From positions 1 through 64,000 of the IMG/VR virus record IMGVR_UViG_3300001279_000031: DNA of 64,000 bases, one strand, 5' to 3'. Under the pieces are notes generated by a model that ran no database searches, had not been told where the DNA came from, and saw only the letters and a list, made by a program, of their open reading frames with translations. This DNA is from a virus. Numbering within the stretch: the first letter of the stretch is position 1; each line of letters starts with the position of its first letter. The translations under genes and the position numbers were made by a program. This document shows positions 3,082-59,987 of the stretch, in pieces.

Positions 3082-3402
3082 ATGATAGGAAATAGCATTG
3101 AAAAGCCATCTAAGTCTGAATTTTTAGATGGTAAGTTCCAAATAAGATGGAACATACAGGAAGTGACAAAAATATTGGATGATGGAAGTACACGTACAGA
3201 ATATTCGTATGAATATAATACTCAATATATCATCACCGAGTTAACTAAAGATGAGATAATCAAAGCGATTATTGCTGAAAGATATTCTTATGCTGATGAA
3301 ATTAAATTAGCTTTTAATAGAGAAACTGATTCAGCTGAGAGATTAGTTCATGAAACTTTAGTAGCTAATTCTAAAGTATGGGCTGATGAAATATTAGCAT
3401 AA
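3082..3402 (+). CDS. Small tail-fibre-associated protein (chaperone-like)
   Basis: 106-aa ORF directly after the tail fibre; IIKAIIAERYSYADE pattern typical of Bacteroidota phage fibre neighbours. Confidence 0.6.
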   Translation: MIGNSIEKPSKSEFLDGKFQIRWNIQEVTKILDDGSTRTEYSYEYNTQYIITELTKDEIIKAIIAERYSYADEIKLAFNRETDSAERLVHETLVANSKVWADEILA

Positions 3403-3425
3403 CAATATTTAATTTAAAAAATATA

Positions 3426-3851
3426 ATGGAAATAAGTTATGATTGCTTGAAAGCAATAAAAAGGTTTGAAGGTTTCAAATCAAAAGCGTATAAATGTCCA
3501 GCTGGAGTTTGGACTATCGGCTATGGCCATACATCTGGTGTAAAAAAGGGTATGGTTGTATCTGATACAACAGCAACATTAACATTAAAACAAGATTTAG
3601 CTAAGCGTGAATCATTCTTAAACTAGTTAAATTTTAGATTAACTCAAGGACAATTTGATGCCTTAATAGACTTTATATTCAATATTGGTACAACTAATTT
3701 CTTAAATAGTTAGTTGTACCAACTATTAAAGTCTAAAGCTAAGTCAATAGACGTAGCTAAACAATTTAAACGTTGGGTTTATGCTGGTGATGAAGTATAG
3801 CCAGGATTAGTAGCTCGTCGTGATTGGGAATATAATAAATATATACAATAA
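3426..3851 (+). CDS. Phage lysozyme/endolysin (GH24), 141 aa, 3 in-frame TAG
   Basis: IKRFEG..AYKCPAGVWTIGYGHT continues through TAGs at 3624, 3711 and 3798 into LTQGQFDALIDFIFNIG and PGLVARR; ends TAA. Confidence 0.92.
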
Positions 3852-4474
3852 TGAAATTAATAAGTTCTATATCCAAATGTCTAAGTGCTATTACGCACAA
3901 TGAATATTTGGGTAAATTCTGTATAGCAGCTTCTGCTTTTTTATCAAGTTTCTTTTTACCAGTATTACCTGTTATAATACTTTGTTTTGTTGCTATACTT
4001 ATAGATTGCTATTACGGTATAAAAGTAGCATATAAGTAGAAAGCAAAGATAGAATCTAGGTTAAGTTGGCATGGGAGTATTTCAAAAATAAAAGAAACGT
4101 TTATTGTACTAGTATTAGCGCGTGCTATAGAATACTTCATATTTAAGCAAACCGGATTATACATACTAACTTGTGGTGCTGCTTTACTTATAACTTTAAC
4201 TGAAGTATGGTCTATATTAGAAAACATGAATACAATCAATCCCTATGGTCCATGGAAAGCGATAAGTACATTCTTACGTAAAAAGGGTAATGACTTCTTA
4301 GGTTTGGATATACAAGCATTGCAAGAAGGACAAATTAAAACAACAGCATATGTGGGTCTTAACAATAATCAAGAAATTACTACCAAAAACACTGAAGTTT
4401 CTAAAGCATCACCTATTTCTGATGCTCTCAATGGTACTTCTTTGCTTAACGGTATATCTATACAAGCAAAATAA
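3851..4474 (+). CDS. Holin (207 aa, 1 in-frame TAG)
   Basis: ORFs 3851-4039 and 4226-4474 joined across TAG 4037; about 3 hydrophobic segments and EVWSILEN motif; follows lysozyme with 1-nt overlap. Confidence 0.8.
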
Positions 4475-5021
4475 TAAACTAGTTACACAAGTTAATAATG
4501 CGACTTCAAACGTTGTAGCATATTAGGGTATTATAAATCAGCGTACTGATTCAAACCGTGTATTAAAATTATCAATTTCTGATTTATCTGAACAAAACGA
4601 TCTCCTGTTATAGAAATATGATAGCGTTCGTGCTGCACATAAAATAGACAGTGATGATATTACAACAGGTTCTATTTAGTCAACAAAGATAGATACTTTA
4701 TTTATAACAAAAATAAAGTCTGATACTACTTATAACAAAGATAATAGATGTAACTTTAAACAAACAATAGCACCTAACAAGTTAACATCAATTACAGTAG
4801 AATTAATAAATGATTCATTAAACGTTAAACTAGATATACATAATAATCAATATTTGTTTATATACAACAAGCGACAATATAAGCATAAAAAGAACTTTAT
4901 AAAACGTTTATTCACATTAGACTTTAAACGTATTACCATTACTTAGTATTAGATAGTCAATGATAATAAACTTATAAAAATAGATGATTCTAGAGTCTTT
5001 GAATCTACTAAAGAAAATTAA
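4350..5021 (+). CDS. Spanin-like (Rz-type) membrane-anchored protein, 223 aa, several TAG; missing from the ORF track
   Basis: MWVLTIIKK...FLMLSMVLLCLTVYLYKQ (N-terminal TM) then a coiled-coil-like region; only TAG interrupts until TAA 5019-5021; position in the lysis cassette. Confidence 0.65.
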
Positions 5022-5023
5022 CA

Positions 5024-5710
5024 ATGGAAATATTTTCATTAAACGCACTTATAGATGATATATTATTGACAGCACGAAATAATGCTATTAGTCAATCTGA
5101 AGATCTATCGAGGGCACAAATAGAAAGCTGGATACATCAGTATCGTGCTTTACTGATTAAATAGCAAATAGATAAAGGTTATGATATTGACAATAGTTAT
5201 TTATAGGAACTTGATAATGTTCAAATATCACAAATGCCTATAAATACTATTGATACTATATCTGATTCTAGTACTGATAGACCAGATTTCTATTTATATC
5301 GTAGTATAAATAAGATACCAAAACCTATAAACTTATAGGAACTTGGTAATGGTATAATCAGTGTACAAGATCTATATAACAATAACATATAGAAATTATC
5401 AGAACAACGTGTATCACTTTAGAAATATCGTAAATATACAAGTCAAGAATACACATTTCATTATTAGAAGCCATATATGTATATATATGGTCCAGATGCA
5501 CTCAGGTATATACGTATTCGTGGTGTATTTGACAATCCTGTTGATGCTGGCTTAGATCCAGATGATGTATATCCAATACCAATAAACATGATACCTACAT
5601 TAAAACAAATGATATTTACTAATGAACTAAAATTTATGTTTAGTTTACCATCAGATGATCGTAATGATGAAACGCTAGATACTATAAAAAATAATGGTGA
5701 AACCAAATAA
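5024..5710 (+). CDS. Conserved crAss-like structural (tail ring-type) protein, 228 aa, TAG-recoded
   Basis: MEIFSLNALIDDIL..QIESWIHQYRALLIK..; in frame with ORF 5477-5710 (IRIRGVFDNP..YPIP); gene order. Confidence 0.7.
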
Positions 5711-6140
5711 TAAGCAGTCTTATAGTTTACACGACTTTTACGATGTATACACAGTTGATTATACGCGATTTAAGGTACCATACAGGCTCTACAAGAGCGT
5801 TTTAGATCGTTTTAATACAATTATACTACAAAAACTTTTTAGTGGCTTAGAAGAGCTTAAAATGCCATTTGGACTAGGTTCTATTTGCATAATAAAGTAT
5901 AAGCCACTATACTTTGACGGGCGATCGTTATCAATAGATTATAAGTTATGTAAACAATATAATAAACTTATTTATTTTTTAAACGAGCACTCTGATGGTT
6001 ATAAGTATAGGTTATATTGGCAAAGAAAGTAGAAACCTACATACATAACGCAATATAGTCTGTCGCTTGTTAGGTAGAATAAACGCAAGTTAGCACAAAT
6101 TATAAAAAATAAAGAACACGATTTTATAGAATTAATATGA
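5694..6140 (+). CDS. IHF/HU-like protein conserved in crAss-like phages, 148 aa, 2 TAG
   Basis: ORF 5694-6032 extends through TAG to TGA 6138-6140; LKMPFGLGSICIIK..FLNEHSDGYKYRLYW; position before tail tubular gene. Confidence 0.7.
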
Positions 6141-6985
6141 TATATAAATATACTACATGCGAACCGATTATTGCTAAAATATTGTCTGATCAGGACATAT
6201 CGGATATTGGCTAGCGTACAACAGATATAAAAGAATGGATATTTGAAGCATTGGAAAAAATTGGTGCACCACAGCAATATGATCATAAAGAATCTAATAC
6301 TGAAAGTACACCACTTCTTCATATCGTTAATTATTAGGCTCAACTTCCTTAGGATCTTGTTAGTCTAGAATAGGTAGCATGCTCACGTTCAAATAATGGG
6401 CCATGGCGATCAATGTGGTTGTCTACTGGCTCATTTAAATTAAAACCAGATGCTGGTGATGCTGGTATGAGCGACTTTACTACTGATGAATCTAAATAGG
6501 GTACTATGAACGATGATGACGAATACCCGATACTAGTAAAGTTTCCTACTAATAAAAATACAACAAATTTTGCTGTAGACCCTCAATACTTTTTAAAACC
6601 AGGTTATATAGTAACTAACATCAAAGAAGGGTACTTGAAATTAGCTTATAAGGCAATATCAACAGATGATCGCGGTTATCCACTGATACCAGATTTAACA
6701 TCTTATCAAGAAGCAATATATTGGTATGTTGTAATGAAATTGAGTTGGCCTTTATATTATTCTGGTAAGTTACGTTCAGAAGTATACTATAGCATACAGT
6801 CGTCGTGGAACTTTTATCGTAAGCAAGCTTATGCTGAAGCGATGATGCCAAACGATGATCAAATGACTAGTATTAAGAACGAATGGCTTAAATTAGTACC
6901 AGAAATTGATGAAGAATTAACATTCAATTCAAACATAGGTAAACAACAAAAACTGTGGAATAACTATTATGGCAGAATCTACTAA
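6137..6985 (+). CDS. Tail tubular / ring protein, 282 aa, TAG-recoded
   Basis: ATGA overlap with previous gene; IKEWIFEALEKIG..GYPLIPD..YQEAIYWYVVMK..WNFYRKQA; in frame with ORF 6506-6985. Confidence 0.75.
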
Positions 6986-45314: not shown

Positions 45315-45399
45315 ATATTAATCAAATTCGAGACATTAGAAAACAGTGTGAGTAGTATAGAAACCAATCTATAGCGATAAAAACGACTACTACCCTAAG

Positions 45400-45466
45400 T
45401 GGTAAGATAAGGAGTCAAACCTCATTCCACATTTCTGTGTGCATTATCATCAATGTTAATCTTACC
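45400..45466 (-). ncRNA. tRNA-like element lacking a canonical anticodon loop
   Basis: Acceptor GGTAAGA/TCTTACC+A, D-arm CATT/AATG, CACA-GAAA-TGTG arm, T-arm TGAGG-TTTGACT-CCTTA. Confidence 0.55.
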
Positions 45467-45538
45467 AAAAATATCGAGCTCCAACCATAGCTCTATATAT
45501 TATTATATTATATTCCAACCAAATAATAATCAAGAATT

Positions 45539-50913: not shown

Positions 50914-51459
50914 TTAATTTTTGTAATTTTTGAGAATTTTTCTTAATTTTGCTTTAGATCTACTTATGTCACTTTTTACAGTGCCAATAGGGATCCGCAT
51001 TAATTTACTAATCTCTCGATATGGTAGATTACTATAGTAGTATAATGTTAAAATCTTACGTTTAATAGGACTTAACTGGCACATACCTTTTTCTAGGAGT
51101 TCGCGTAACTCTAGATTTATTATATCAGCATCTGTATTATTACAAGATACTTCTATATCTCCTATATTATCATCAATATCAACATTACGATTGCTGTTTT
51201 TTAATGATCTAATATAATCTATGCATGTGTTTACTGCTATAGCTTTTAGCCAAGCTTCAAAACTTATATCATTTATATATGTATTTAATTTAAGCCATGC
51301 TTTTAAGAACGTACGATTGAGTACTTCATCTGTTAGACTAGTATCTTTCATAATATAACTAATGTTATTACGTATCTTATCTTTATACATATTATAAAGT
51401 TTTGTAAATGATATTTCATCTTTATTCTTAGCGTTTTCGATTAAGATTTTCTCATTCAT
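50914..51459 (-). CDS. ECF-type sigma-70 factor
   Basis: Region 2 TFLKAW..FEAWLKAIAVNTCIDYIR; region 4 YREISKLMRIPIGTVKSDISRSK. Confidence 0.9.
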   Translation of the reverse strand: MNEKILIENAKNKDEISFTKLYNMYKDKIRNNISYIMKDTSLTDEVLNRTFLKAWLKLNTYINDISFEAWLKAIAVNTCIDYIRSLKNSNRNVDIDDNIGDIEVSCNNTDADIINLELRELLEKGMCQLSPIKRKILTLYYYSNLPYREISKLMRIPIGTVKSDISRSKAKLRKILKNYKN

Positions 51460-51468
51460 TTAACTGTT

Positions 51469-51948
51469 TTAAAAAGGAAGATGTAGGATATTTGTAGCGT
51501 AATAATTACGCCACTCATATTCTGCATCTAAAATATTAAAATGTAAATTTGCCATTAATTGTGCTTTTTCATTGTGTGTCAATACTGGTAATTTACTTAC
51601 CATATTACATGCTATTTTTTCAAATACTAAATTTGTTTTTCTAGTATTTAAGTCAATACACAATGATATGTTTTTGTTAACAAAAGCACAAATATTCCAG
51701 AATTTATCTTTAATGAGGTAATTTTGATCACATAAAGATAATAGTTGTGTAATTGTAACTGTTTTATCTTTTTTATCATCGAAACATATATTACTGTTTG
51801 CTAAATAACGATACTCATTATATAATTCATTTAATGACATTGTAAAAAATCTAGCTGTAGTACGTAAAAATACATATTTATCAGCTAGATTTAATTGTGA
51901 AATATCTGGATATCCCTTCCAAAAATTCCTATAATCTTTAAACATCAT
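51469..51948 (-). CDS. Hypothetical protein
   Basis: 159-aa ORF. Confidence 0.62.
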   Translation of the reverse strand: MMFKDYRNFWKGYPDISQLNLADKYVFLRTTARFFTMSLNELYNEYRYLANSNICFDDKKDKTVTITQLLSLCDQNYLIKDKFWNICAFVNKNISLCIDLNTRKTNLVFEKIACNMVSKLPVLTHNEKAQLMANLHFNILDAEYEWRNYYATNILHLPF

Positions 51949-52438
51949 ACTCTTTATTATTTATGTATTTTTCCATTAAGGAAAATATAAAATCTGTAAT
52001 GCTTATAGACCAGCCATTATCTAATTGCATTCTATTTTTAATGTAAGATAATGGTAATTGTTCTTTTTTAAGAACTAAAAATTGTTTAATCCAAATATTG
52101 ATATCGTCCTGCGTTACTTTTTGTGGATCTAATTCATTATAATCTATAAATAAAGGTGATTGTGGTAATTCTATTCCTTCAAATAATGGAATAACGAATA
52201 TTTTCCTAGAAGTTTTGTCATTAAAATTGTAAGTTGATAACGCATCGATTTCTTCTTTTGTTAAGGCAACAATATTGCCCTTTAAAAATTCTCTAAAATC
52301 TATGCCATTTAATATTTTTAATAGAGAATTTCCAATTATATTTACTAAGAATATCCTATCTTGTAAATATATAATGTATTGTCCTTTATTCATTATGAAA
52401 TATTTTATAGAACTTTTTACTAATAAAAGACGCGTCAA
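51938..52438 (-). CDS. Hypothetical protein (start probably MNKGQY at 52393)
   Basis: ORF with overlaps to neighbours. Confidence 0.58.
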   Translation of the reverse strand: MTRLLLVKSSIKYFIMNKGQYIIYLQDRIFLVNIIGNSLLKILNGIDFREFLKGNIVALTKEEIDALSTYNFNDKTSRKIFVIPLFEGIELPQSPLFIDYNELDPQKVTQDDINIWIKQFLVLKKEQLPLSYIKNRMQLDNGWSISITDFIFSLMEKYINNKEYDV

Positions 52439-52568
52439 CTATATCTAAGTCATATGTACTTTGTATCGCTAAAGTAAATGTCGACTCGTTACTACATGAT
52501 TTAGCTAATTTTTTTAAGTTAGCTTTTTCACCAGGTTTATCAAAAAAGGTATATTTAATTACTTTCAT
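52386..52568 (-). CDS. Small hypothetical protein
   Basis: 60-aa ORF, ATGA-coupled to the upstream gene. Confidence 0.55.
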   Translation of the reverse strand: MKVIKYTFFDKPGEKANLKKLAKSCSNESTFTLAIQSTYDLDIVDASFISKKFYKIFHNE

Positions 52569-53086
52569 CGTACATTTTCTCTATAATTATCTACATCATC
52601 TATTATTTGACAATAATTTACTTTTAATTTTTTAAATTCATCAAATGCTATTGGACTTAATATTCCTACGGGATAATTATAATTAGTATATTCAAATAAT
52701 TTATTTATACGTGCAAATCTAGCATTTCTGATATTAGTAGATAGTAAAAATATGTTACTATATCTGTTAATATCTTCATATAAAATATTAACATATGCTA
52801 TATATACCTTTTGATTTTTTAAGGCATATATCCATTCTTCCGGCATCCGTTTCTTTATGTATCCACGAAAGCCTTGTTTGCTTATTTTCTTTGATCCAAC
52901 CATTTCTTTTTTATTTGATATTTCTAATTCATCAAGACTATAATATTTATGATTTGATAATGTTATACTTATATTATTATATAATTCATTACTACTAATC
53001 ATTTTAAGTACTATGCTAGTACCTATAACCTGTAAATATACAGGTTTTCTACTTATAATTATAGATATATACTCTTCATATGTCAT
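52565..53086 (-). CDS. Hypothetical protein
   Basis: 173-aa ORF. Confidence 0.6.
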   Translation of the reverse strand: MTYEEYISIIISRKPVYLQVIGTSIVLKMISSNELYNNISITLSNHKYYSLDELEISNKKEMVGSKKISKQGFRGYIKKRMPEEWIYALKNQKVYIAYVNILYEDINRYSNIFLLSTNIRNARFARINKLFEYTNYNYPVGILSPIAFDEFKKLKVNYCQIIDDVDNYRENVR

Positions 53087-53302
53087 AATAATAATAATAT
53101 TATTAATAAAATTAATATAGCACTTAAATACTAAAGATATACATGCTATATTAATATTTTATAATTTGATATTATGTAAAATATTGTAAGATTTTAATTT
53201 TAGTAGTGTGCGATCCAGTAGGACTTAACCATCAAGGGTCTCTACTAAAGGTTATTAATCTTAGATACTTAGGATACATCAATATCAAATCTTTTGATAG
53301 AT

Positions 53303-53881
53303 TTACCTATTTTTTCCAACATGATAACTTGCATTATTAGCTACACTTTCAGTGTTACTAGCTACACTTTTATCTGTAACATCGTGCAACTGTTGAGCGT
53401 CTTCCGGTAAGACTTCATTCTCAGTTTTACTTTTCCAACTGCTAAAATATGTAGCTACATCTTTCGAAGCAAACAATTCTTGCAATTGCGAAATTAACAA
53501 TGCTGTTTCTGTATTTAAATGATTTAAACCATTTGAATACACTTTTTTAATCTCTTCTGATTTATTATAATAATCTCTAACAGATAATGTACCTGTTTTA
53601 AAAGTTTCACCGAGCTCGGTTAGACTCTTTAAACGGATTTTAAAGACTGTTTCTTCACCACGTTTATATCTAAGTAAAATAAGTTGACGACATCTCTCAA
53701 ACTTATTTTCACTTAAAATCATAGAAGCTTGTTCAATCTTTATTTCTTGCTCCTTTTTTGTAATTTGTTCTGCAGCAGCTTTCAACGCATCCACATTCAT
53801 TAATGTTTTTTTGGTGATCTGCTCTTTTATATCACCATCAACATCTAAAGACATAAAGTCATTTGTCTTTTTTTCTTCCAT
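53303..53881 (-). CDS. Hypothetical coiled-coil protein
   Basis: 192-aa ORF with AATTATCAAAAATG start context. Confidence 0.7.
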   Translation of the reverse strand: MEEKKTNDFMSLDVDGDIKEQITKKTLMNVDALKAAAEQITKKEQEIKIEQASMILSENKFERCRQLILLRYKRGEETVFKIRLKSLTELGETFKTGTLSVRDYYNKSEEIKKVYSNGLNHLNTETALLISQLQELFASKDVATYFSSWKSKTENEVLPEDAQQLHDVTDKSVASNTESVANNASYHVGKNR

Positions 53882-53892
53882 TTTGATAATTT

Positions 53893-54078
53893 TTAATTGT
53901 TAATACTTTTATTTTGATAATATTGTTTTAATAATTTATTTTTAGAAATACCAAATAATTCACGTATAGTGGATGGATTTGTTTTTCTAATTTCAATTAT
54001 ATCTGCATTTTTTTTAGTAGCTTTATAGCTACTATATAAATGTGTTCTATCCTCTTTCAATTTTAATTTTTTTATCAT
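53893..54078 (-). CDS. Small basic hypothetical protein
   Basis: 61-aa ORF with AAATTATTAAAATG start context. Confidence 0.55.
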   Translation of the reverse strand: MIKKLKLKEDRTHLYSSYKATKKNADIIEIRKTNPSTIRELFGISKNKLLKQYYQNKSINN

Positions 54079-54113
54079 TTTAATAATTTTAATTTAAAAG
54101 TAAGCAGATTAGC
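54061..54113. repeat. 53-bp direct repeat, copy 1 (flanks leuS)
   Basis: 50/53 identical to 57076-57128. Confidence 0.85.
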
Positions 54114-54260
54114 CACCATCGGTTGTTACTTTATACGGTAATAGAAAGGTTGTCCAACCCAGTGCATAACTAACAAGACCTAATGTTATCAACAAATAGT
54201 CCCTAAATTCACGAAGGATAATAGTCTTACCAATTTTACTCATATAATATATTCTTATTT

Positions 54261-57053
54261 TCAGCCGACTACAACGTTCACAATCTTATTCGGAACAACG
54301 ATAATCTTCCTGATATTCTTCCCGGCAATCCATTTCTGTGAATCGTCATGCGCAAGTACCGTCTTTTCAATGGCTTCGCGGTCAATGTCGACAGGGAAAT
54401 CAATGGAGAAACGAGCTTTGCCGTTAAACGAGATTGTGTATTTAACGGAATCTTCTTTCAGATATTCTTCATTGCACACAGGCCATTGTGCATCGCAAAC
54501 GGATGCCGTATGTCCCAATGCTTCCCATAACTCCTCGGCAATGTGCGGGGCAAACGGAGCAATAAGCACAACCAAGTCACTCAACACCTGCTTGTTGTTG
54601 CACGTCAAAGCTGTGAGTTCGTTTACGCAAATCATGAATGCACTGATAGAAGTGTTGTATGAGAAACTCTCTATATCTCCGGTTACTTTCTTTATCAGTT
54701 TGTTAATGCTTTTCAACTCTTCTTTCGTGGCTTCACCGTCGACGGGGATAAACTCGTCGGCCTTGTTCCAGAATAAGAACCAGAATTTGCGCAAGAAACG
54801 GTGAACACCGTCTATTCCGTTAGTATCCCACGGTTTCGATTGCTCAACAGGCCCGAGGAACATCTCGTACATGCGCAGTGTGTCGGCGCCGTATTTCTCA
54901 ACAATCATATCGGGATTAACGACGTTGAACATCGACTTGCTCATCTTTTCAACAGCCCAACCGCAGACATACTTGCCATTTTCCAATACAAACTCTGCAT
55001 TGTTATATTCCGGTCTCCACTTCTTGAAAGCCTCAACGTCCAATATATCATTCGATACAATATTTACGTTAACATGTATTGGCGTAGTATCATATTTGTC
55101 TTTCAACCCGAGAGAAACAAAAGTGTTTGTATCTTTAATTCGGTAAACGAAGTTGCTTCGTCCCTGAATCATTCCCTGATTAACCAGTTTTTGGAACGGC
55201 TCTTCCTTAACCGAAACTCCTAAATCAAATAAAAACTTGTTCCAGAAGCGCGAATATATCAAGTGCCCTGTTGCATGCTCGGTACCTCCCACGTACAAAT
55301 CGACATTCTGCCAATAACGGTCGACCTTTTCCGAAACCAACGCCTTATTGTTATGCGGATCCATGTAACGAAGATAGTATGCAGATGAACCTGCAAAACC
55401 CGGCATAGTATTGAGTTCCAACGGATAACCTTCTTTTGTCTTCCAGTTCTTGGCGCGTCCCAATGGCGGTTCGCCGGTTTCCGTCGGTAAATATTTGTCT
55501 ATTTCAGGCAATTCAAGAGGCAGTTCGTCATCACTTAAAACATGAGGTATTCCGTCTTTGTAATACACCGGGAACGGTTCACCCCAATAACGTTGGCGAC
55601 TAAAGATGGCATCGCGCAGGCGGTAGTTTATCTTTACTCGCCCGAGATTATTCTCGGTTACGTACTTCTTTGTTGCTGCAATTGCCTCTTTTACTGTCAT
55701 GCCGTTGAGATTAAGTTGTCCTTCCTTCTCTTGTCCCGGCTTGGGTGAATTCATCATTATGCCGTCCTTGGCATCAAAGCTCTCCTCGCTGACGTCGCAT
55801 CCTTCAATCAGCGGACGAATTTCAAGGCCGAACTCTTTGGCAAAAGCATAGTCGCGACTGTCGTGCGCCGGTACGGCCATAATGGCTCCCGTGCCGTATC
55901 CTGCCAATACATAATCGCTAATCCAAATGGGAATAGCTTCATTTGTCAACGGATTTATAGCATACGAACCTGAGAATACTCCCGTAACCTTGCGGTCGGC
56001 AATACGTTCACGTTCGGTTCTTTTCTTTGTTCTTTCCAAATATGCCTTCACGTCTGTTTGTTGAGCCGGAGTAGTCAACTCGGCAACCAACTCACTTTCC
56101 GGGGCAAGTACCATGAATGTAACACCGAAGATAGTATCTGCACGCGTAGTGAAAATAGTAAACTCAACGTCGCTGTCTTTTACTTTGAACTGCATTTCAG
56201 TACCTTCGCTACGCCCTATCCAGTTACGTTGTGTCTCTTTAAGCGAATCTGTCCATTCGATAGTGTCCAATCCGTCAAGCAGGCGTTGGGCGTATGCCGA
56301 CATACGCAAGCACCATTGGCGCATCTTCTTCTGCACAACAGGATAACCGCCGCGCAACGAAATTCCTTCAACAACTTCATCATTGGCAAGCACCGTACCT
56401 AACTTCGGACACCAGTTAACAACCGAATCTCCAAGATAAGCTATACGACAATTCATCAAAGCATCGCTTTTTGCCTTTTCGTCCTTGGCTTTCCATTCGT
56501 CGGCAGTAAACAAAAGTTCTTCGCTGCAAGCAGCGTTAATGCCTTCAGTACCTGTGGTTTCAAACTTCTCTATAAGTTTATCTATCGGTTGGGCTTTGTC
56601 CAGGTCTTTATCATAATAACTGTTGAACATACGGATGAAAGCCCACTGTGTCCAGTGATAATATCCGGGGTCGCACGTACGTACTTCACGGTCCCAATCG
56701 AAAGAAAAGCCAATCTTATCCAATTGGCTGCGATAACGGTTTATATTGTTTGTTGTTGTAATTGCAGGATGTTGTCCGGTCTGAATGGCATATTGTTCTG
56801 CTGGAAGCCCGTATGCATCATATCCCATCGGATTAAGAACATTAAATCCTTGTAACCGTTTGTAACGGGCATAAATATCTGTAGCAATATATCCCAACGG
56901 ATGCCCAACATGCAAACCCGCACCGGAGGGATAAGGAAACATATTCAGTACATAGTATTTCTTCTTTGTTTCGTCTTCTACAACATGGTACGTTTTATTC
57001 TCGACCCATTTTTTTTGCCATTTCTTTTCAATCTCGCTGAAATTATATTCCAT
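54261..57053 (-). CDS. leuS: Leucine--tRNA ligase, full-length, Bacteroidales-type
   Basis: [14 protein letters not shown] (HIGH), KMSKS, CP1 editing motifs FTTRADT and [19 protein letters not shown]-terminal [12 protein letters not shown]; 930 aa; GC-richer than flanks. Confidence 0.97.
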
Positions 57054-57075
57054 GATGACCGTATTTTATTATCTA

Positions 57076-57128
57076 TTTTAATTTTTTTACCATTTTGATA
57101 ATTTTAATTTAAAAGTAAGCATATTAGC
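57076..57128. repeat. 53-bp direct repeat, copy 2 (flanks leuS)
   Basis: 50/53 identical to 54061-54113; contains an orphan start MVKKLK. Confidence 0.85.
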
Positions 57129-57307
57129 ATATTTGCATACCTTATTTTGCTAAATTCCCATGTCCTTCATTCAAATCACGTTTGAACATGATTGCCGTCA
57201 AATAGCTTGTATTATATATAATATAATATTAGGGGTCTGGAATGCTTACCAATTACTTTATTCATATGATAATAATTAATAATTATTTGTTAATGAAGAA
57301 TATTTCG

Positions 57308-57445
57308 TTATTCATCATCATTGTAGCGCATCTTTCTATCCTTTTTTTTAAAAGGATTTAATTTAGCATGTTTTGCTTTAGTGTGAAAAGTAGGATTATT
57401 ATCGTTACCACTTCTCTTTTTTTTGTCCTTAAAAGTTTTGCTCAT
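57308..57445 (-). CDS. Small basic protein (45 aa), below the ORF-track cutoff
   Basis: MSKTFKDKKKRSGNDNNPTFHTKAKHAKLNPFKKKDRKMRYNDDE*; fills the gap after 57463. Confidence 0.55.
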   Translation of the reverse strand: MSKTFKDKKKRSGNDNNPTFHTKAKHAKLNPFKKKDRKMRYNDDE

Positions 57446-57462
57446 GACACATAACTTTATTC

Positions 57463-58122
57463 TTAATACAGCATTAAATATTGAAAATATCCAAGTGACT
57501 TATGCTTAATAGCTTGTTTACAATCACCAAATATTGGTGAATTTATAACAGTCGCACCATCTTTTATAGCTCCAAGTAACTGTAAATATGTTAAATTAAA
57601 CTTAAGATCTGTAAAATTCTTATTCCATTCTACAATTTCTCGTGAAACGTTTCCAAATTCTGCTGGACGTGTTACTTTTATACTATCTATACCAACATAA
57701 TCACAAAAATACGAATATTTATTATTTCCATTAAAATTTGCATGAACTGAATATTCTATATAAAGAGTAATACAAACTTTATACTTTTTGCCATCTATGA
57801 TTTTTTCAATATTTTTTGAAAATTCTGCATGTTTGTCATCATTTATGGCAATTCGATCAAATCCCATTTTATAAAATACACCAAAATCTAATAAAAAATT
57901 AGTAGTTATAGTTTTTGGTGAATGCCAACGATGATTTATAAACAATCGTTGTTTAATCATTTCTTTATTAGAAAGCATAGCTAAATCAAGTGATAGATTT
58001 TCATTAAAATCTTTTACTATATTTGCACGTATACCTTCAATTGGATAAGGACATTGTTTGTATTTTACTAATTGTCCTTTGTTGATGGAAACCATACACT
58101 TATTTTTATCAACAATCCTCAT
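57463..58122 (-). CDS. Hypothetical protein
   Basis: 219-aa ORF. Confidence 0.65.
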   Translation of the reverse strand: MRIVDKNKCMVSINKGQLVKYKQCPYPIEGIRANIVKDFNENLSLDLAMLSNKEMIKQRLFINHRWHSPKTITTNFLLDFGVFYKMGFDRIAINDDKHAEFSKNIEKIIDGKKYKVCITLYIEYSVHANFNGNNKYSYFCDYVGIDSIKVTRPAEFGNVSREIVEWNKNFTDLKFNLTYLQLLGAIKDGATVINSPIFGDCKQAIKHKSLGYFQYLMLY

Positions 58123-58127
58123 AATTT

Positions 58128-58631
58128 TTATATTTTATAATTATTCCGTAGAATTATACGAAAAGTAAATTCATTTATTTGTTTAGAAAAGTTACTTTTC
58201 ATATATGCGATATTAAACGCAGTAGGATAATCGTGGATAAACAACAAAATATTTTTTATTAACATTTTTGTATCATCATCGTGCTCTTCGTTAATAAATT
58301 TTAATATTCTTAAAATATATATCCATTCTTTTGGAATAGATTTTGTAAACTCTTCTACGATTACAAGTGATTTTATTTTTTTATATAATTTATCCAACAT
58401 TGTATCAATCGTATTTCTTTCTGCAGTTGTACGATGTATCATTCGAATATGTCCGGATTCATCGATGCTGATGTTTTTTATTTCTCTAGCATCAAAAATC
58501 CTTATTGATCCATTTTTACCACGAAATTGTGTATTCGCGGTATTACTAATTGATTTAGCAGATTCATCAGTAATCGATTCTGCTGGTATTTGTGGATCGT
58601 CAATGCAAATTAAAACAAAGGCGCGTTTCAT
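58128..58631 (-). CDS. Hypothetical protein
   Basis: 167-aa ORF. Confidence 0.62.
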   Translation of the reverse strand: MKRAFVLICIDDPQIPAESITDESAKSISNTANTQFRGKNGSIRIFDAREIKNISIDESGHIRMIHRTTAERNTIDTMLDKLYKKIKSLVIVEEFTKSIPKEWIYILRILKFINEEHDDDTKMLIKNILLFIHDYPTAFNIAYMKSNFSKQINEFTFRIILRNNYKI

Positions 58632-58632
58632 A

Positions 58633-58992
58633 TTAATACGAATTATTTTTTCTTATTGATAATATACTATCTATATATTTATTTAACTTAGCATCATAAT
58701 CTACACGTTTATAGAATTTATAATGTGTTTTATAATTAGCAACAATAAATTGTTTTGTTATTGGTACTTTACTTTTTACCAAAGTATCAATTATAACTGC
58801 TAAACAGTTATTACTAATTGTATAATATACAGAATCTGTTAAAAACTGTGCTTTACTAGCATTTCTATCTAATATTGTAGATGAAATGATTTCTTTAGTT
58901 GTCTTTTTATGTTGGCAACTACTAAGATTAAATACCATTACAATTGCAAATATAGCAACTGTAAACATTAAGAATTTTCTAAATTTACTCAT
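58633..58992 (-). CDS. Putative lipoprotein
   Basis: Basic N-terminus, hydrophobic stretch, lipobox LSSC. Confidence 0.68.
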   Translation of the reverse strand: MSKFRKFLMFTVAIFAIVMVFNLSSCQHKKTTKEIISSTILDRNASKAQFLTDSVYYTISNNCLAVIIDTLVKSKVPITKQFIVANYKTHYKFYKRVDYDAKLNKYIDSILSIRKNNSY

Positions 58993-59342
58993 AATTTATT
59001 GATTAAATTAATAATTTTATAAAATCTAATAAAAGATAAGTATGAACTTTACTAATAGCATAACTTCTACATTATTAAACTTATTAATTGTTCATACTTA
59101 TCAGGATATATATATTAATAATTGAGGACTATTTAAAAGTATTACTATATTCACATACCATAATACTAAGTAGGTTATACAACTATATTCACCAACTTTA
59201 AAACGAATAATTATGTCAAACATTAGTCTGTTAAAAAACAGATTGTATTCACACACTATCTATTTATAACTAGTGCCCTTTAAAAACATATATAACAAAA
59301 TAGTTATTAAAAAACCATTCACGGTTAATTAACTTTTTAATT

Positions 59343-59639
59343 TTAATTTATTGCATTATCTTCATTTTCATTTACTAATTCTTTATTGATTAAAAAGTAA
59401 ATATAATTTATTGCAAATAATAGAATTATTGAAGATATAAATGCAATTATACTTATCATTAATATCAAATGAACATTTATTTGATTAAAAAAGTCCATTA
59501 AACATTTAAGATAAAAGCTACTAAATATTGACGTGATGCCAACTACTCCTGCACTAATTAATATTAATATAATAATATCTAAGCTTAAGAATAAAGATAT
59601 TAATAAAATAGTGTCAATAACTTGCGTTGTTATTTTCAT
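59343..59639 (-). CDS. Membrane protein
   Basis: 98 aa, two long hydrophobic segments. Confidence 0.55.
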   Translation of the reverse strand: MKITTQVIDTILLISLFLSLDIIILILISAGVVGITSIFSSFYLKCLMDFFNQINVHLILMISIIAFISSIILLFAINYIYFLINKELVNENEDNAIN

Positions 59640-59702
59640 TATGTAAATTTAATTATTATAAAATATACACAACTAATAATTATACATAGAATCATAAAAG
59701 CT

Positions 59703-59987
59703 CTAATCATTTTCACAATACTCAAAATTACTTTTGTTCCATTCCTTTGTGTCATAATTATATACTATACTTTTATCATTGATGTCTGTATTTTCATCAA
59801 TGGCAATACAAATAAAACATTTACTTCCAACATTACTATTTACTAATTTTAATAGATCAAAACACATACAATTACATTTATTTTTAAATATAGCGCAATC
59901 TTCACATTTTGTAAATGTACTATTAATTTTAAGTCTATATACTTTATTATTAAGTATAATTCTAGGCAATTTTCTAAATTTACTCAT
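59703..59987 (-). CDS. Cys-rich hypothetical protein
   Basis: CEDCAIF..CNCMC..CFIC. Confidence 0.55.
   Translation of the reverse strand: MSKFRKLPRIILNNKVYRLKINSTFTKCEDCAIFKNKCNCMCFDLLKLVNSNVGSKCFICIAIDENTDINDKSIVYNYDTKEWNKSNFEYCEND

Follow-up and report, generated by a model that had tools for sequence, protein, structure and literature searches.

Recent capture of a Bacteroidaceae leucyl-tRNA synthetase gene by an amber-recoded crAss-like wetland phage, probably as a near-neutral passenger

Classic morons, foreign genes that sit between phage genes, bring their own promoter and terminator. In the T4-type phages, variable early genes are associated with promoter/stem-loop sequences, the PeSLs (Arbiol et al. 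2010, PMC2839356; Comeau et al. 2014, PMC4122927). Aminoacyl-tRNA synthetases (aaRS) are reported from huge phages, in numbers of up to 15, and the accessible part of Al-Shayeb et al. 2020 (PMC7162821) calls them "distinct from but related to" host genes. A further setting is that of the Jade phages, which are TGA-recoded and carry a module consisting of a suppressor tRNA, TrpRS and RF1, as stated in the accessible text of Borges et al. (10.1101/2021.08.26.457843). Here we describe a leucyl-tRNA synthetase (LeuRS) gene, leuS, in an amber-recoded crAss-like phage. It is part of a contiguous 2.96-kb piece of Bacteroidaceae chromosome with a copy of a 54-nt phage sequence on either side. We read this locus, with a probability of about 85%, as the recent capture of a host gene by microhomology-mediated recombination, in which the gene is a near-neutral passenger and the phage is linked to its host.

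The phage is known from the IMG/VR record IMGVR_UViG_3300001279_000031, an 86-kb, 86%-complete genome from a wetland, of which the first 64,000 nucleotides were analysed (the window). Coordinates are those of the window, and all features of the insertion site lie on the minus strand. The phage is crAss-like and has undergone amber recoding. Its DNA polymerase is 55-58% identical to that of the crAss-like genomes named "uncultured phage cr*" (11 of the 12 rows listed), and its plus-strand late genes depend on read-through of TAG for open frames: ORFs of 1507, 4465 and 1690 amino acids (aa) appear only when TAG is a sense codon. The single tRNA of the phage is a suppressor with the anticodon CUA, at genome position 70408-70477. 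A tRNA mimic at 45400-45466 folds in a cloverleaf-like manner with a short variable region (z -2.1), and nothing ties it to LeuRS. The insertion site lies in the early-gene arm, with phage genes on both sides of leuS on one molecule, and leuS has the same orientation as the minus-strand genes for replication and regulation. Of ten neighbouring proteins compared with PHROGs, six had no family, among them those of both genes adjoining the insert. Megablast of positions 51500-59800 gave no match in the phage collection, and neither relatives of the two flanking phage proteins nor matches to the 54-nt repeat pattern were found in the viral contig collection, though records very near the window may be absent from both.

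The leuS gene (54261..57053), called as an ORF and by profile searches, is intact and encodes 930 aa; it starts with ATG, ends with TGA and has no in-frame TAG. Judged by its full-length profile match (918.9 bits; cut-off 548.4), the protein belongs to the bacterial-type NCBIfam family TIGR00396 leuS_bact. Pfam recovers the class I catalytic core, the CP1 editing domain (PF13603, residues 276-439, 197.6 bits) and the anticodon-binding domain (PF08264, residues 780-889), and the motifs HVGH (48-51) and KMSKS (703-707), which we take to be the HIGH-type and the second class I signature, are invariant in an alignment of 14 sequences. The preliminary description of this DNA had seen a full 930-aa LeuRS with HIGH, KMSKS and editing motifs, without TAG, co-oriented with the early genes and with a GC content of about 43% as compared to about 23% beside it, and on all these points it is borne out. 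By our count, the GC content is 0.444 in leuS and 0.251 and 0.240 in the 3-kb phage flanks, and no other GC island occurs in the 86-kb record. GC3 is 0.47 in leuS versus 0.13-0.22 in four phage genes, and TTA makes up 8 of 67 leucine codons in leuS versus 124 of 217 in seven phage genes. By these two measures, leuS shows no codon amelioration toward phage usage.

The source of the insert can be named. A metagenome contig, L084, matches the window in a single blastn alignment, which covers only 54114-57086 and shows 99.765% identity over 2973 nt, that is, seven differences, while the phage flanks are unmatched. L084 is bacterial. It has a GC content of about 0.42, and leuS (3091..5883 in its own coordinates) is accompanied by yitT (5901..6782), which encodes a full YitT protein of 293 aa (198.8 bits), as well as by a LytTR two-component pair, Ham1, RlmL and DPP-IV. 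The leuS-yitT order is found at all five bacterial loci checked, plus in the IMG/VR contig L001. L001 and a second IMG/VR contig, L002, whose LeuRS are 78% and 67% identical, were considered as further cases of phage-borne leuS and rejected on account of their GC content (0.36-0.54) and, for L001, of this bacterial gene order. Among 301 scored genomes, a sample of the Bacteroides cutis family, one reference genome matches all 2973 nt at 94%, and the next best reaches 77%; by this similarity, the donor lineage is assigned to the Bacteroidaceae. The donor-type bacterium occurs in the same sample as the phage and in other wetland samples. Both the very recent capture from a Bacteroidales host that had been proposed and the idea that the insert identifies this host are thus upheld by the search for the nearest bacterial leuS.

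At the protein level, the phage LeuRS differs from that of L084 at three residues, C202 for W, M251 for I and V577 for A, of which the first lies at a site that is aromatic (W or Y) in the 12 other aligned sequences. Six of the seven nucleotide differences are A or T in the phage, which suggests AT pressure, though the number is too small. We have not counted these differences as mutations since the capture, because they are few and because some are perhaps shared with the local bacterial strain, as is suggested by the additivity of depths in the metagenome run X1 (see below). A 923-aa protein from a 3259-nt contig shares the three residues of the phage type and has, in addition, Y88N and a changed N-terminus, and the latter may fit one extra A in a run of eight. 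Since it is known from the protein only, it was left out of the independent support for the capture.

The bacterium-homologous block (2973 nt, 54114..57086, as delimited by blastn to L084) consists of leader, leuS, spacer and a stub of yitT. It is larger than first described: the foreign DNA had been thought to start at the leuS stop codon and to end within about 10 nt of the ATG, and neither border is where it was placed. Upstream of the ATG there are 21 bacterium-unique nt, the native leuS leader (57054..57074), which is identical in L084 directly before its leuS ATG. This becomes 33 nt when the 12-nt microhomology AAAAATTAAAAT at the left junction (57075..57086) is included, which, in a three-way alignment of both phage repeat copies with L084, occurs in the phage target as well as in the leader of the bacterial leuS. 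At the other end, the block runs 147 nt further than the stop codon, through the native 17-nt intergenic spacer (54244..54260; the gap is the same in L084) and into the first 44 codons of the gene for the host's YitT-family membrane protein (54109..54243). The DNA of this stub equals L084 except for one base, and its match to Pfam PF02588 (profile positions 1-29, E 0.0022) is below the cut-off owing to its shortness; it is closed by a TAA that arises at the junction. The last bacterium-homologous position is 54114, phage sequence begins again at 54113, and the homology at this junction is about 1-2 nt as compared to the 12 nt at the left.

The 54-nt repeat on either side of the block occurs in two copies only in the window, and none is expected in shuffles. 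By alignment, its downstream copy (54060..54113) is continuous with a small phage ORF of 61 aa (53893..54078; an ORF call with no PHROG match), the 5′ end of which is the insertion target, and which was left intact because the target was duplicated. The upstream copy (57075..57128) has three mismatches to the downstream one and holds the leader, the ATG and six codons of this small ORF, which now stops at TAG (MVKKLK and stop). Directly upstream lies a RAGATH-9 RNA (Rfam RF03146, 57114..57259), which matches the full model (1-173) with 75.4 bits (gathering score 75.2) and an E-value of 4.7e-11. The 3′ strand of its outer helix falls within the upstream repeat copy, and a fold of the single sequence recovers this helix, though the fold is no better than those of shuffles. 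In the full-text library searched, no literature on "RAGATH-9" was found, and, by title and abstract, the RAGATH papers among the matches listed treat other motifs.

Metagenome runs were used to follow the joints; the evidence from them consists of contigs, and each depth is one figure per contig. Run X1 is the probable source sample, such that agreement there tests the assembler and not the sample. Its contigs enter the insert from both phage flanks. A contig of 11062 nt (depth 19.4) covers 52500-54151 and reaches 38 nt into the insert, and the left-flank contig of 16780 nt (depth 23.4) covers 57058-58700 and enters by 17 bacterium-unique nt plus the 12-nt microhomology, which puts 29 letters on the insert side, just short of the 31-letter bridging rule applied. 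Within the insert, pieces with phage-type letters have depths of 17.8-18.6, which is like the phage, shared pieces 28.6-30.6 and a variant piece 8.85, and loose ends run into the bacterial flank at 57086. No empty-site joint was seen among the X1 contigs. The empty site is found in run X5, from a different wetland sample and study, in one contig at depth 4. This contig of 731 nt runs over 53493-54107 and continues at 57123-57237. The 3015 nt passed over equal the spacing of the repeats exactly, and the contig has a single copy of the 54-nt sequence. The phage in question is about 97% identical to that of the window, and X5 shows gaps within leuS. In runs X4 and X6, the insert is covered and the phage flanks almost not at all, and the insert differs from the X4 bacterium at seven letters. 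An assembly chimera or artificial insertion had been named from the start as something to be excluded, and even coverage across the junctions and an empty site in related phages had been asked for as checks. Contigs of matching depth and an empty site are now at hand, and the independently built X1 contigs together with the X5 empty site argue against a chimera. The leuS insertion is genuine.

As to the route, we propose microhomology-mediated illegitimate recombination or template switching while the phage was replicating in its host. A growing phage strand with AAAAATTAAAAT at its end would have primed on the host leuS leader, and copying would then have run through leuS into yitT. A switch back to a phage template 54 nt upstream of the point of departure would have duplicated the target and thereby kept the small downstream phage gene intact. 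Between the repeat copies, 3 of 54 positions are mismatched, as compared to 7 of 2973 between insert and L084, and duplication of one template does not predict this, such that a switch between two variants, or later recombination or gene conversion, would be needed in addition.

Because the junction falls at the leuS leader, the native bacterial promoter would have been left behind; in L084, a -7-box-like TATCTTTG stands 3 nt upstream of the junction and may be the native promoter box. Without this promoter, leuS would have to be read from phage transcripts, which would cross the RAGATH-9 RNA and the duplicated leader into leuS. A scan found 20 sigma-70-like sites versus 10.8 +/- 3.1 expected, and no minus-strand terminator between 57054 and 57460; we regard it as uninformative, since promoters of Bacteroidota depart from the sigma-70 consensus. 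Translation would use the native leader of leuS, and the product would be almost identical to the host LeuRS. In one local phage population, the dominant genotype has the insert. The insert-bearing form alone was seen in X1, and a benefit to the phage would give the same pattern. Since the capture is recent, we infer near-neutrality. In all probability, the insert is a passenger that was acquired very lately and has almost no effect on fitness, a "moron in the making", and not yet an adapted phage gene. An established phage aaRS gene would be conserved among relatives and diverged from the host copy; leuS is 99.77% identical to its bacterial counterpart, and a close relative has the empty site. 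LeuRS matches in the phage collection are mostly short unannotated "phage" records that resemble fragments of host DNA, or else huge phages with an identity of about 30%. No crAss-named record was among the matches listed (the best 30 of 43 phage records), and a tally of all 43 by the first word of their names showed none other than three "uncultured", which are the three listed huge-phage records.

An artefact of assembly or library preparation that wrongly joined a bacterial leuS into the phage contig is very improbable, even though the composition changes sharply at the borders, the donor bacterium co-occurs in the sample, as the loose ends at 57086 show, and the evidence is at the level of contigs from the possible source sample. 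Two assemblies, the record and the X1 contigs, concur; junction homologies of 12 nt and about 2 nt are too short for a k-mer misjoin, and a misjoin would not yield a 54-nt phage duplication with three mismatches. Furthermore, X1 is without an empty-site path, the depth of the phage-type pieces is close to the 19.4-23.4 of the flanks, and the insert differs from both L084 and the X4 bacterium, at seven letters each. Given a real insertion, one may ask whether it came about as a one-off illegitimate event or by cassette exchange between pre-existing repeated regulatory modules, as with PeSLs. The duplicated unit is indeed a module of leader plus start, a shorter related leader, AATTAAAAATTATCAAAATG, stands before the next gene as well (53879-53898; three matches versus 0.12 expected), and two variant bases of the upstream repeat copy agree with this third leader. 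Nevertheless, we consider such an exchange quite unlikely. It would involve many dispersed module copies older than their cargo, but the 64 kb hold two full copies and one partial copy of 20 nt, and the single copy in the empty-site relative implies that the second one arose with the insertion. Moreover, the incoming DNA is chromosomal and without a module of its own, and one of its junctions is at a microhomology and the other within yitT.

The remaining alternatives to a near-neutral passenger concern what LeuRS might do for the phage. The roles first suggested, namely translation takeover, counter-defence and the charging of phage tRNA-like RNAs, receive no positive support from the analysis. 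It might be an adaptive auxiliary gene, kept because extra or host-independent charging of Leu-tRNA early in infection helps the phage, and this we regard as unlikely, as we do the particular scenarios of a TTA-rich proteome, a shut-off of host leuS or a host defence directed at LeuRS or tRNA-Leu. The gene is intact, with its native leader kept and no phage gene broken, the insert-bearing genotype is the sole phage form in X1 at about 20x, leucine codons are heavily used in the phage genes, TTA above all, and the huge phages provide a precedent. Against this, an enzyme in which 3 of 930 residues differ from the nearest bacterial allele offers nothing beyond the host enzyme save timing or dose, an aromatic residue has given way to C202, the gene is missing from a related phage, codon amelioration is absent and the phage has no tRNA-Leu. 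There is a small chance that we see the first step of a selected acquisition, in which a host-identical LeuRS is made from the earliest transcripts, downstream of RAGATH-9. If this were true, LeuRS would sustain leucine charging for TTA-rich phage genes when host synthesis is shut off or attacked, crAss-like phages, like the huge phages, would possess components of the translation machinery, and the moment of acquisition would be preserved with donor, empty site and junctions. Least probable is that LeuRS belongs to the code change and charges the amber suppressor tRNA, such that TAG means leucine. Leucine tRNAs have a long variable arm, and A73 is a main identity element for LeuRS. The suppressor, in contrast, has 70 nt, a short variable region and C as the discriminator (ARAGORN drawing). 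In favour of this idea, bacterial LeuRS is not known to read the anticodon. The phage is also TAG-recoded and carries the CUA tRNA, and the recoded Jade phages have TrpRS beside their suppressor tRNA, but TAG-to-Gln and TGA-to-Trp are the sole reassignments in the accessible text on them (10.1101/2021.08.26.457843). In such a module, the aaRS is cognate and adjacent to the suppressor tRNA; here, the tRNA is about 13 kb from leuS, and the recoding long predates the capture, since a 97% relative has the early-region site without leuS.

For an uncultured crAss-like phage from a wetland, the capture assigns a host directly at the sequence level, namely a Bacteroidaceae lineage of which a reference genome shows 94% identity. 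Captures are usually inferred long after their traces have faded, but here the full record is visible, with the donor allele, the empty site, both junctions, the 12-nt microhomology and the 54-nt duplication. It also constitutes a natural experiment, because tracking the insert through time in this wetland would reveal whether the phage keeps or purges a redundant translation gene.

The leuS capture is no new kind of system. Like a moron, it is a single foreign gene of deviant composition between phage genes, none of which is disrupted. Unlike morons, the block lacks its native promoter and breaks off within the following host gene, and its donor, its empty site and both junctions can be seen. 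The huge phages likewise carry bacterial-type aaRS akin to those of the predicted host phylum, Bacteroidetes included, in the accessible part of the description (PMC7162821). However, these are found in genomes of over 200 kb with many tRNAs and have diverged from the host, whereas the present genome has 86 kb and one suppressor tRNA, and its leuS is 99.8% identical to that of a co-resident bacterium. With the Jade module, as given in the accessible text (10.1101/2021.08.26.457843), the locus shares a standard-code aaRS in a stop-codon-recoded phage. In contrast to it, LeuRS is neither cognate nor adjacent to the suppressor and is not upstream of a lysis cassette, and the conserved module of the Jade phages stands against an insertion that would be days to years old. 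Finally, the locus resembles the variable genes in the early hyperplastic region of T4-type phages, which are bounded by repeated regulatory sequence in the accessible accounts (PMC2839356, PMC4122927). There, the PeSLs are many pre-existing copies of a promoter/stem-loop, whereas here the 54-nt repeat was created by the insertion itself.

The open reading frame at 54261..57053 on the minus strand encodes a leucyl-tRNA synthetase (LeuRS) of 930 aa, with an ATG start, a TGA stop and, as the preliminary description had stated, no in-frame TAG. The claim that the enzyme is intact also holds, since it scores 918.9 bits against the NCBIfam model TIGR00396 (leuS_bact; cut-off 548.4), carries the LeuRS editing domain, the class I core and the anticodon-binding domain (Pfam), and displays the motifs HVGH at residues 48-51 and KMSKS at 703-707. 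The contrast in base composition was likewise borne out: GC content is 0.444 in leuS as compared to 0.251 and 0.240 in the 3-kb phage flanks, and the leuS region is the only one to exceed 0.375 among the 1-kb windows of the 86,339-nt record. GC3 is 0.47 in leuS versus 0.13-0.22 in four phage genes, and TTA accounts for 8 of 67 leucine codons as opposed to 124 of 217 in seven phage genes; the codon use of leuS is unameliorated.

The nearest bacterial leuS came from a metagenome scan (best 80 of 583 relatives), which yielded L084, a contig of 22.9 kb. A blastn comparison of positions 52001-59500 to this contig gave a single alignment, 54114-57086, with 99.765% identity over 2973 nt, and no match for the phage flanks. 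L084 is bacterial, given its GC content of approximately 0.42 and its gene content around leuS (histidine kinase, LytTR response regulator, leuS, YitT, Ham1, RlmL-like methyltransferase, DPP-IV peptidase). Its YitT is full-length (293 aa, 198.8 bits), and the leuS-yitT order recurs in all five other bacterial loci checked. In a search across the Bacteroides cutis family that covered 401 genomes (301 scored, 100 unscored), 295 of the scored genomes matched the block, and a single Bacteroidaceae genome of 3.5 Mb, G035, matched all 2973 nt at 94%, with the runner-up among the 301 at 77%. This genome shares the lytTR-leuS-yitT-ham1 order, at protein identities of 93-99%. In a scan of genome contigs, the best among the matches listed reached 80%, in Phocaeicola and Bacteroides. 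At the protein level, the best 120 of 8000 candidates scored included one nominal 100% match (which in fact has three differences), one at 99%, one at 96% and one group at 86-87%; the named Bacteroides enzymes (B. sp. ET225, B. sedimenti, B. salyersiae) and uncultured Bacteroides lie at 79-81% among the matches listed. The 96% cluster is bacterial, since one member is found on a contig of 1.45 Mb. Two proteins of this cluster, P0004 and P0125, have 939 aa; compared with the 930-aa form, they carry 9 inserted residues where the editing-domain region ends.

The preliminary description had placed the borders at the stop codon and within about 10 nt of the ATG. This has to be revised, because bacterial homology extends from 54114 to 57086 and takes in a piece of yitT as well as a 21-nt leader. 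The stop codon of leuS is followed by a 17-nt spacer and a 44-codon ORF (54109-54243, minus strand) that matches positions 1-29 of the Pfam YitT_membrane profile (E 0.0022). This stub retains its own ATG and spacer, its closing TAA was made at the junction, and if translated, it could give a hydrophobic peptide of 44 aa. The native promoter region of leuS is absent from the insert. At the left junction, the phage side ends ...GTAAAAAAATTAAAAT and the bacterial leader reads GCGAAAAATTAAAATAGATAAT..., such that 12 nt are common to both, followed by the 21-nt native leader and leuS. At the right junction, bacterial homology stops within yitT at 54114 (...GGTG), and from 54113 on the sequence is phage (GCTAAT..., the start of a repeated 54-nt unit), with an overlap of at most 1-2 nt. 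A 46-nt sequence is found at 57075-57120 and 54060-54105, with no third copy in the window and none expected by chance, and together with 8 further bases it makes up a direct repeat of 54 nt (57075-57128 and 54060-54113) with three mismatches. An intact phage ORF of 61 aa (53893..54078) has its leader, ATG and first codons in the downstream copy, and the upstream copy holds the same ORF start, which runs into a TAG after six codons. The phage has thus gained 3015 nt in total, namely 2961 nt unique to the bacterium and one additional copy of the 54-nt unit, and no phage ORF is broken.

The preliminary description had cautioned that an assembly chimera must be excluded. Parts of the stretch occur as contigs in 12 runs, all of them wetland, soil or wastewater metagenomes and none an RNA run. 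In one of these, X1, possibly the source sample, coverage across the borders could be followed at the level of contigs, which enter the insert from both flanks. A contig of 11,062 nt (depth 19.4) spans 52500-54151, including 38 nt of the insert, and one of 16,780 nt (depth 23.4) spans 57058-58700, its insert side consisting of 17 bacterium-unique nt plus the 12-nt microhomology, i.e., 29 letters where the bridging rule is 31. The end points of these contigs match a 31-mer graph in which phage-borne and bacterial copies coexist. Insert pieces that are identical to the window and shared have depths of 28.6-30.6, and at variant sites the depths are 17.8-18.6 for the window letters and 8.85 for the other letters, which fits a phage copy at approximately 19x and a bacterium at approximately 9-10x. 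Loose ends at 57086 lead into the bacterial upstream flank, showing that the bacterium is present in the sample. No empty-site joint was seen in the X1 contigs, though a minority form of this kind may exist, since there is one depth per contig and contigs drop rare variants. That a k-mer misjoin linked leuS to the phage is unlikely, because the sequence common to both sides is just 12 nt at one junction and about 2 nt at the other, a 54-nt phage duplication with mismatches is not a misjoin product, and two assemblers concur. Overall, an assembly artefact is very unlikely.

An empty site in a related phage was found in X5, a run from a different sample and study. There, a 731-nt contig of depth 4 aligns to 53493-54107, where 15 letters differ and 3 gaps occur, and resumes at 57123-57237 with 4 differing letters. 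It omits 3015 nt, which is the exact spacing of the repeat (6 letters fit either side), and hence represents a phage of about 97% identity that lacks leuS and has the 54-nt unit once. To judge from where the joint falls, the start of this unit is of the downstream type at the first variable position. Bacterial leuS is found in X5 as well, in pieces whose loose ends at 54114 and 57086 lead into bacterial flanks. Two further runs, X4 (a 17,394-nt contig, 7 other letters) and X6 (10,530 nt, 49 other letters), hold the block in bacterial context only.

The proposal of a very recent capture from a Bacteroidales host is upheld, as the insert differs from L084 at only 7 positions. Six of these lie in leuS, three synonymous (codons 122, 454 and 692) and three nonsynonymous (C202 in the phage for W, M251 for I, V577 for A), and one lies in the yitT stub; the phage letter is A or T at six of the seven. 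In an alignment of 14 sequences, position 202 is W or Y except in the window protein and P0003, and the changes to M251 and V577 are conservative. Contig depths suggest that the local bacterium in X1 carries the window letters at 55324, 56448 and 56688; in that case, L084 would be more distant than the actual donor. P0003 itself is a near-identical LeuRS of 923 aa on a 3259-nt contig, with the three phage-type residues, Y88N and an altered N-terminus that would fit a +1 frameshift in an A8 run at codons 13-15, and may represent either a copy in decay or an error of sequencing.

Capture may have taken place while the phage DNA was replicating, through microhomology-mediated template switching or illegitimate recombination with the host chromosome, with a return point that would lie 54 nt behind the point of departure. 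Between the two 54-nt copies, 3 of 54 positions are different, a divergence far above that of insert and donor (99.8% identical). A switch back onto a second phage variant, later recombination between strains and gene conversion between leaders are all possible explanations. At two of the three variant positions, the upstream copy has the base of a related leader, that of the next early gene (53879-53898), a hint that phage variants may have recombined or that leader modules may have undergone gene conversion.

The virus record is linear and an estimated 86% complete. On the plus strand of 1-33853, long ORFs of 1507, 595, 688, 4465 and 1690 aa exist only with TAG as a sense codon, and the minus-strand genes of 34000-64000 are open in the standard code. 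This latter arm has genes for a DNA polymerase, a DnaB-like helicase, a primase, an exonuclease, a Sak4-like protein and a sigma factor, and the polymerase shares 55-58% identity with those of genomes named 'uncultured phage cr*' (96-104 kb, human faeces; 11 of the 12 matches listed). No tRNA was found in the 64-kb window, and the only one in the whole record, at 70408-70477 beyond it, has the anticodon CTA, a length of 70 nt and a short variable region, and represents the amber suppressor to be expected from the TAG-containing late genes. From the polymerase, the TAG-dependent ORFs and this tRNA, the phage is crAss-like with amber-recoded late genes.

Within the standard-code arm, leuS is promoter-proximal, and it is from this position that we call it early. 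Its expression would have to rely on phage transcription. Immediately upstream of the insertion target, in what is now the position ahead of leuS, lies a RAGATH-9 RNA (Rfam RF03146; 57114-57259, minus strand), the only Rfam match at gathering level in the window (75.4 bits versus a gathering score of 75.2, full model); no paper on RAGATH-9 was found in the literature searched. The 3′ helix strand of this RNA falls within the upstream 54-nt copy, such that leuS now occupies the former place of the small ORF behind it. The sigma factor gene (50914-51459, minus strand; phrog_1740, E 3.8e-27) lies downstream of leuS and is transcribed in the same direction.

There is no support for a role of the LeuRS in charging the amber suppressor: this tRNA has a short variable region and, as drawn, a discriminator C, it lies approximately 13 kb from leuS, and the capture is later than the recoding of TAG. 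A tRNA-like fold at 45395-45472 (minus strand; MFE -16.5 kcal/mol, z -2.1) is cloverleaf-like, with a GAAA tetraloop in place of the anticodon loop; it is not called by ARAGORN, and its tRNA-like part at 45400-45466 has no long variable arm. Since the host already has virtually the same enzyme and a sister phage does without it, leuS is most likely a near-neutral passenger, and a selected function in the phage is improbable.

With respect to known systems, no crAss-named genome was found among the 30 listed of 43 phage records with a LeuRS match, and a tally of the first organism word across all 43 gave no candidate for one other than three 'uncultured' entries, which are the three huge-phage records listed. 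Literature searches found nothing relevant on LeuRS capture in phage genomes, and nothing on LeuRS in crAss-like phages in the titles and abstracts of the matches listed. [quoted passage not shown] In TGA-recoded Jade phages, a TrpRS is reported in a code-change module, and according to the same report phage synthetases that match suppressors are rare, with only Gln and Trp reassignments seen (10.1101/2021.08.26.457843); a 2026 preprint on an amber-recoded Crassvirales genus restates the module concept (10.64898/2026.08.21.746148). The leuS capture is a clean and unusually fresh case of a known process rather than a new mechanism, and it adds a new, host-linked member to the class of phage-borne aminoacyl-tRNA synthetase genes.
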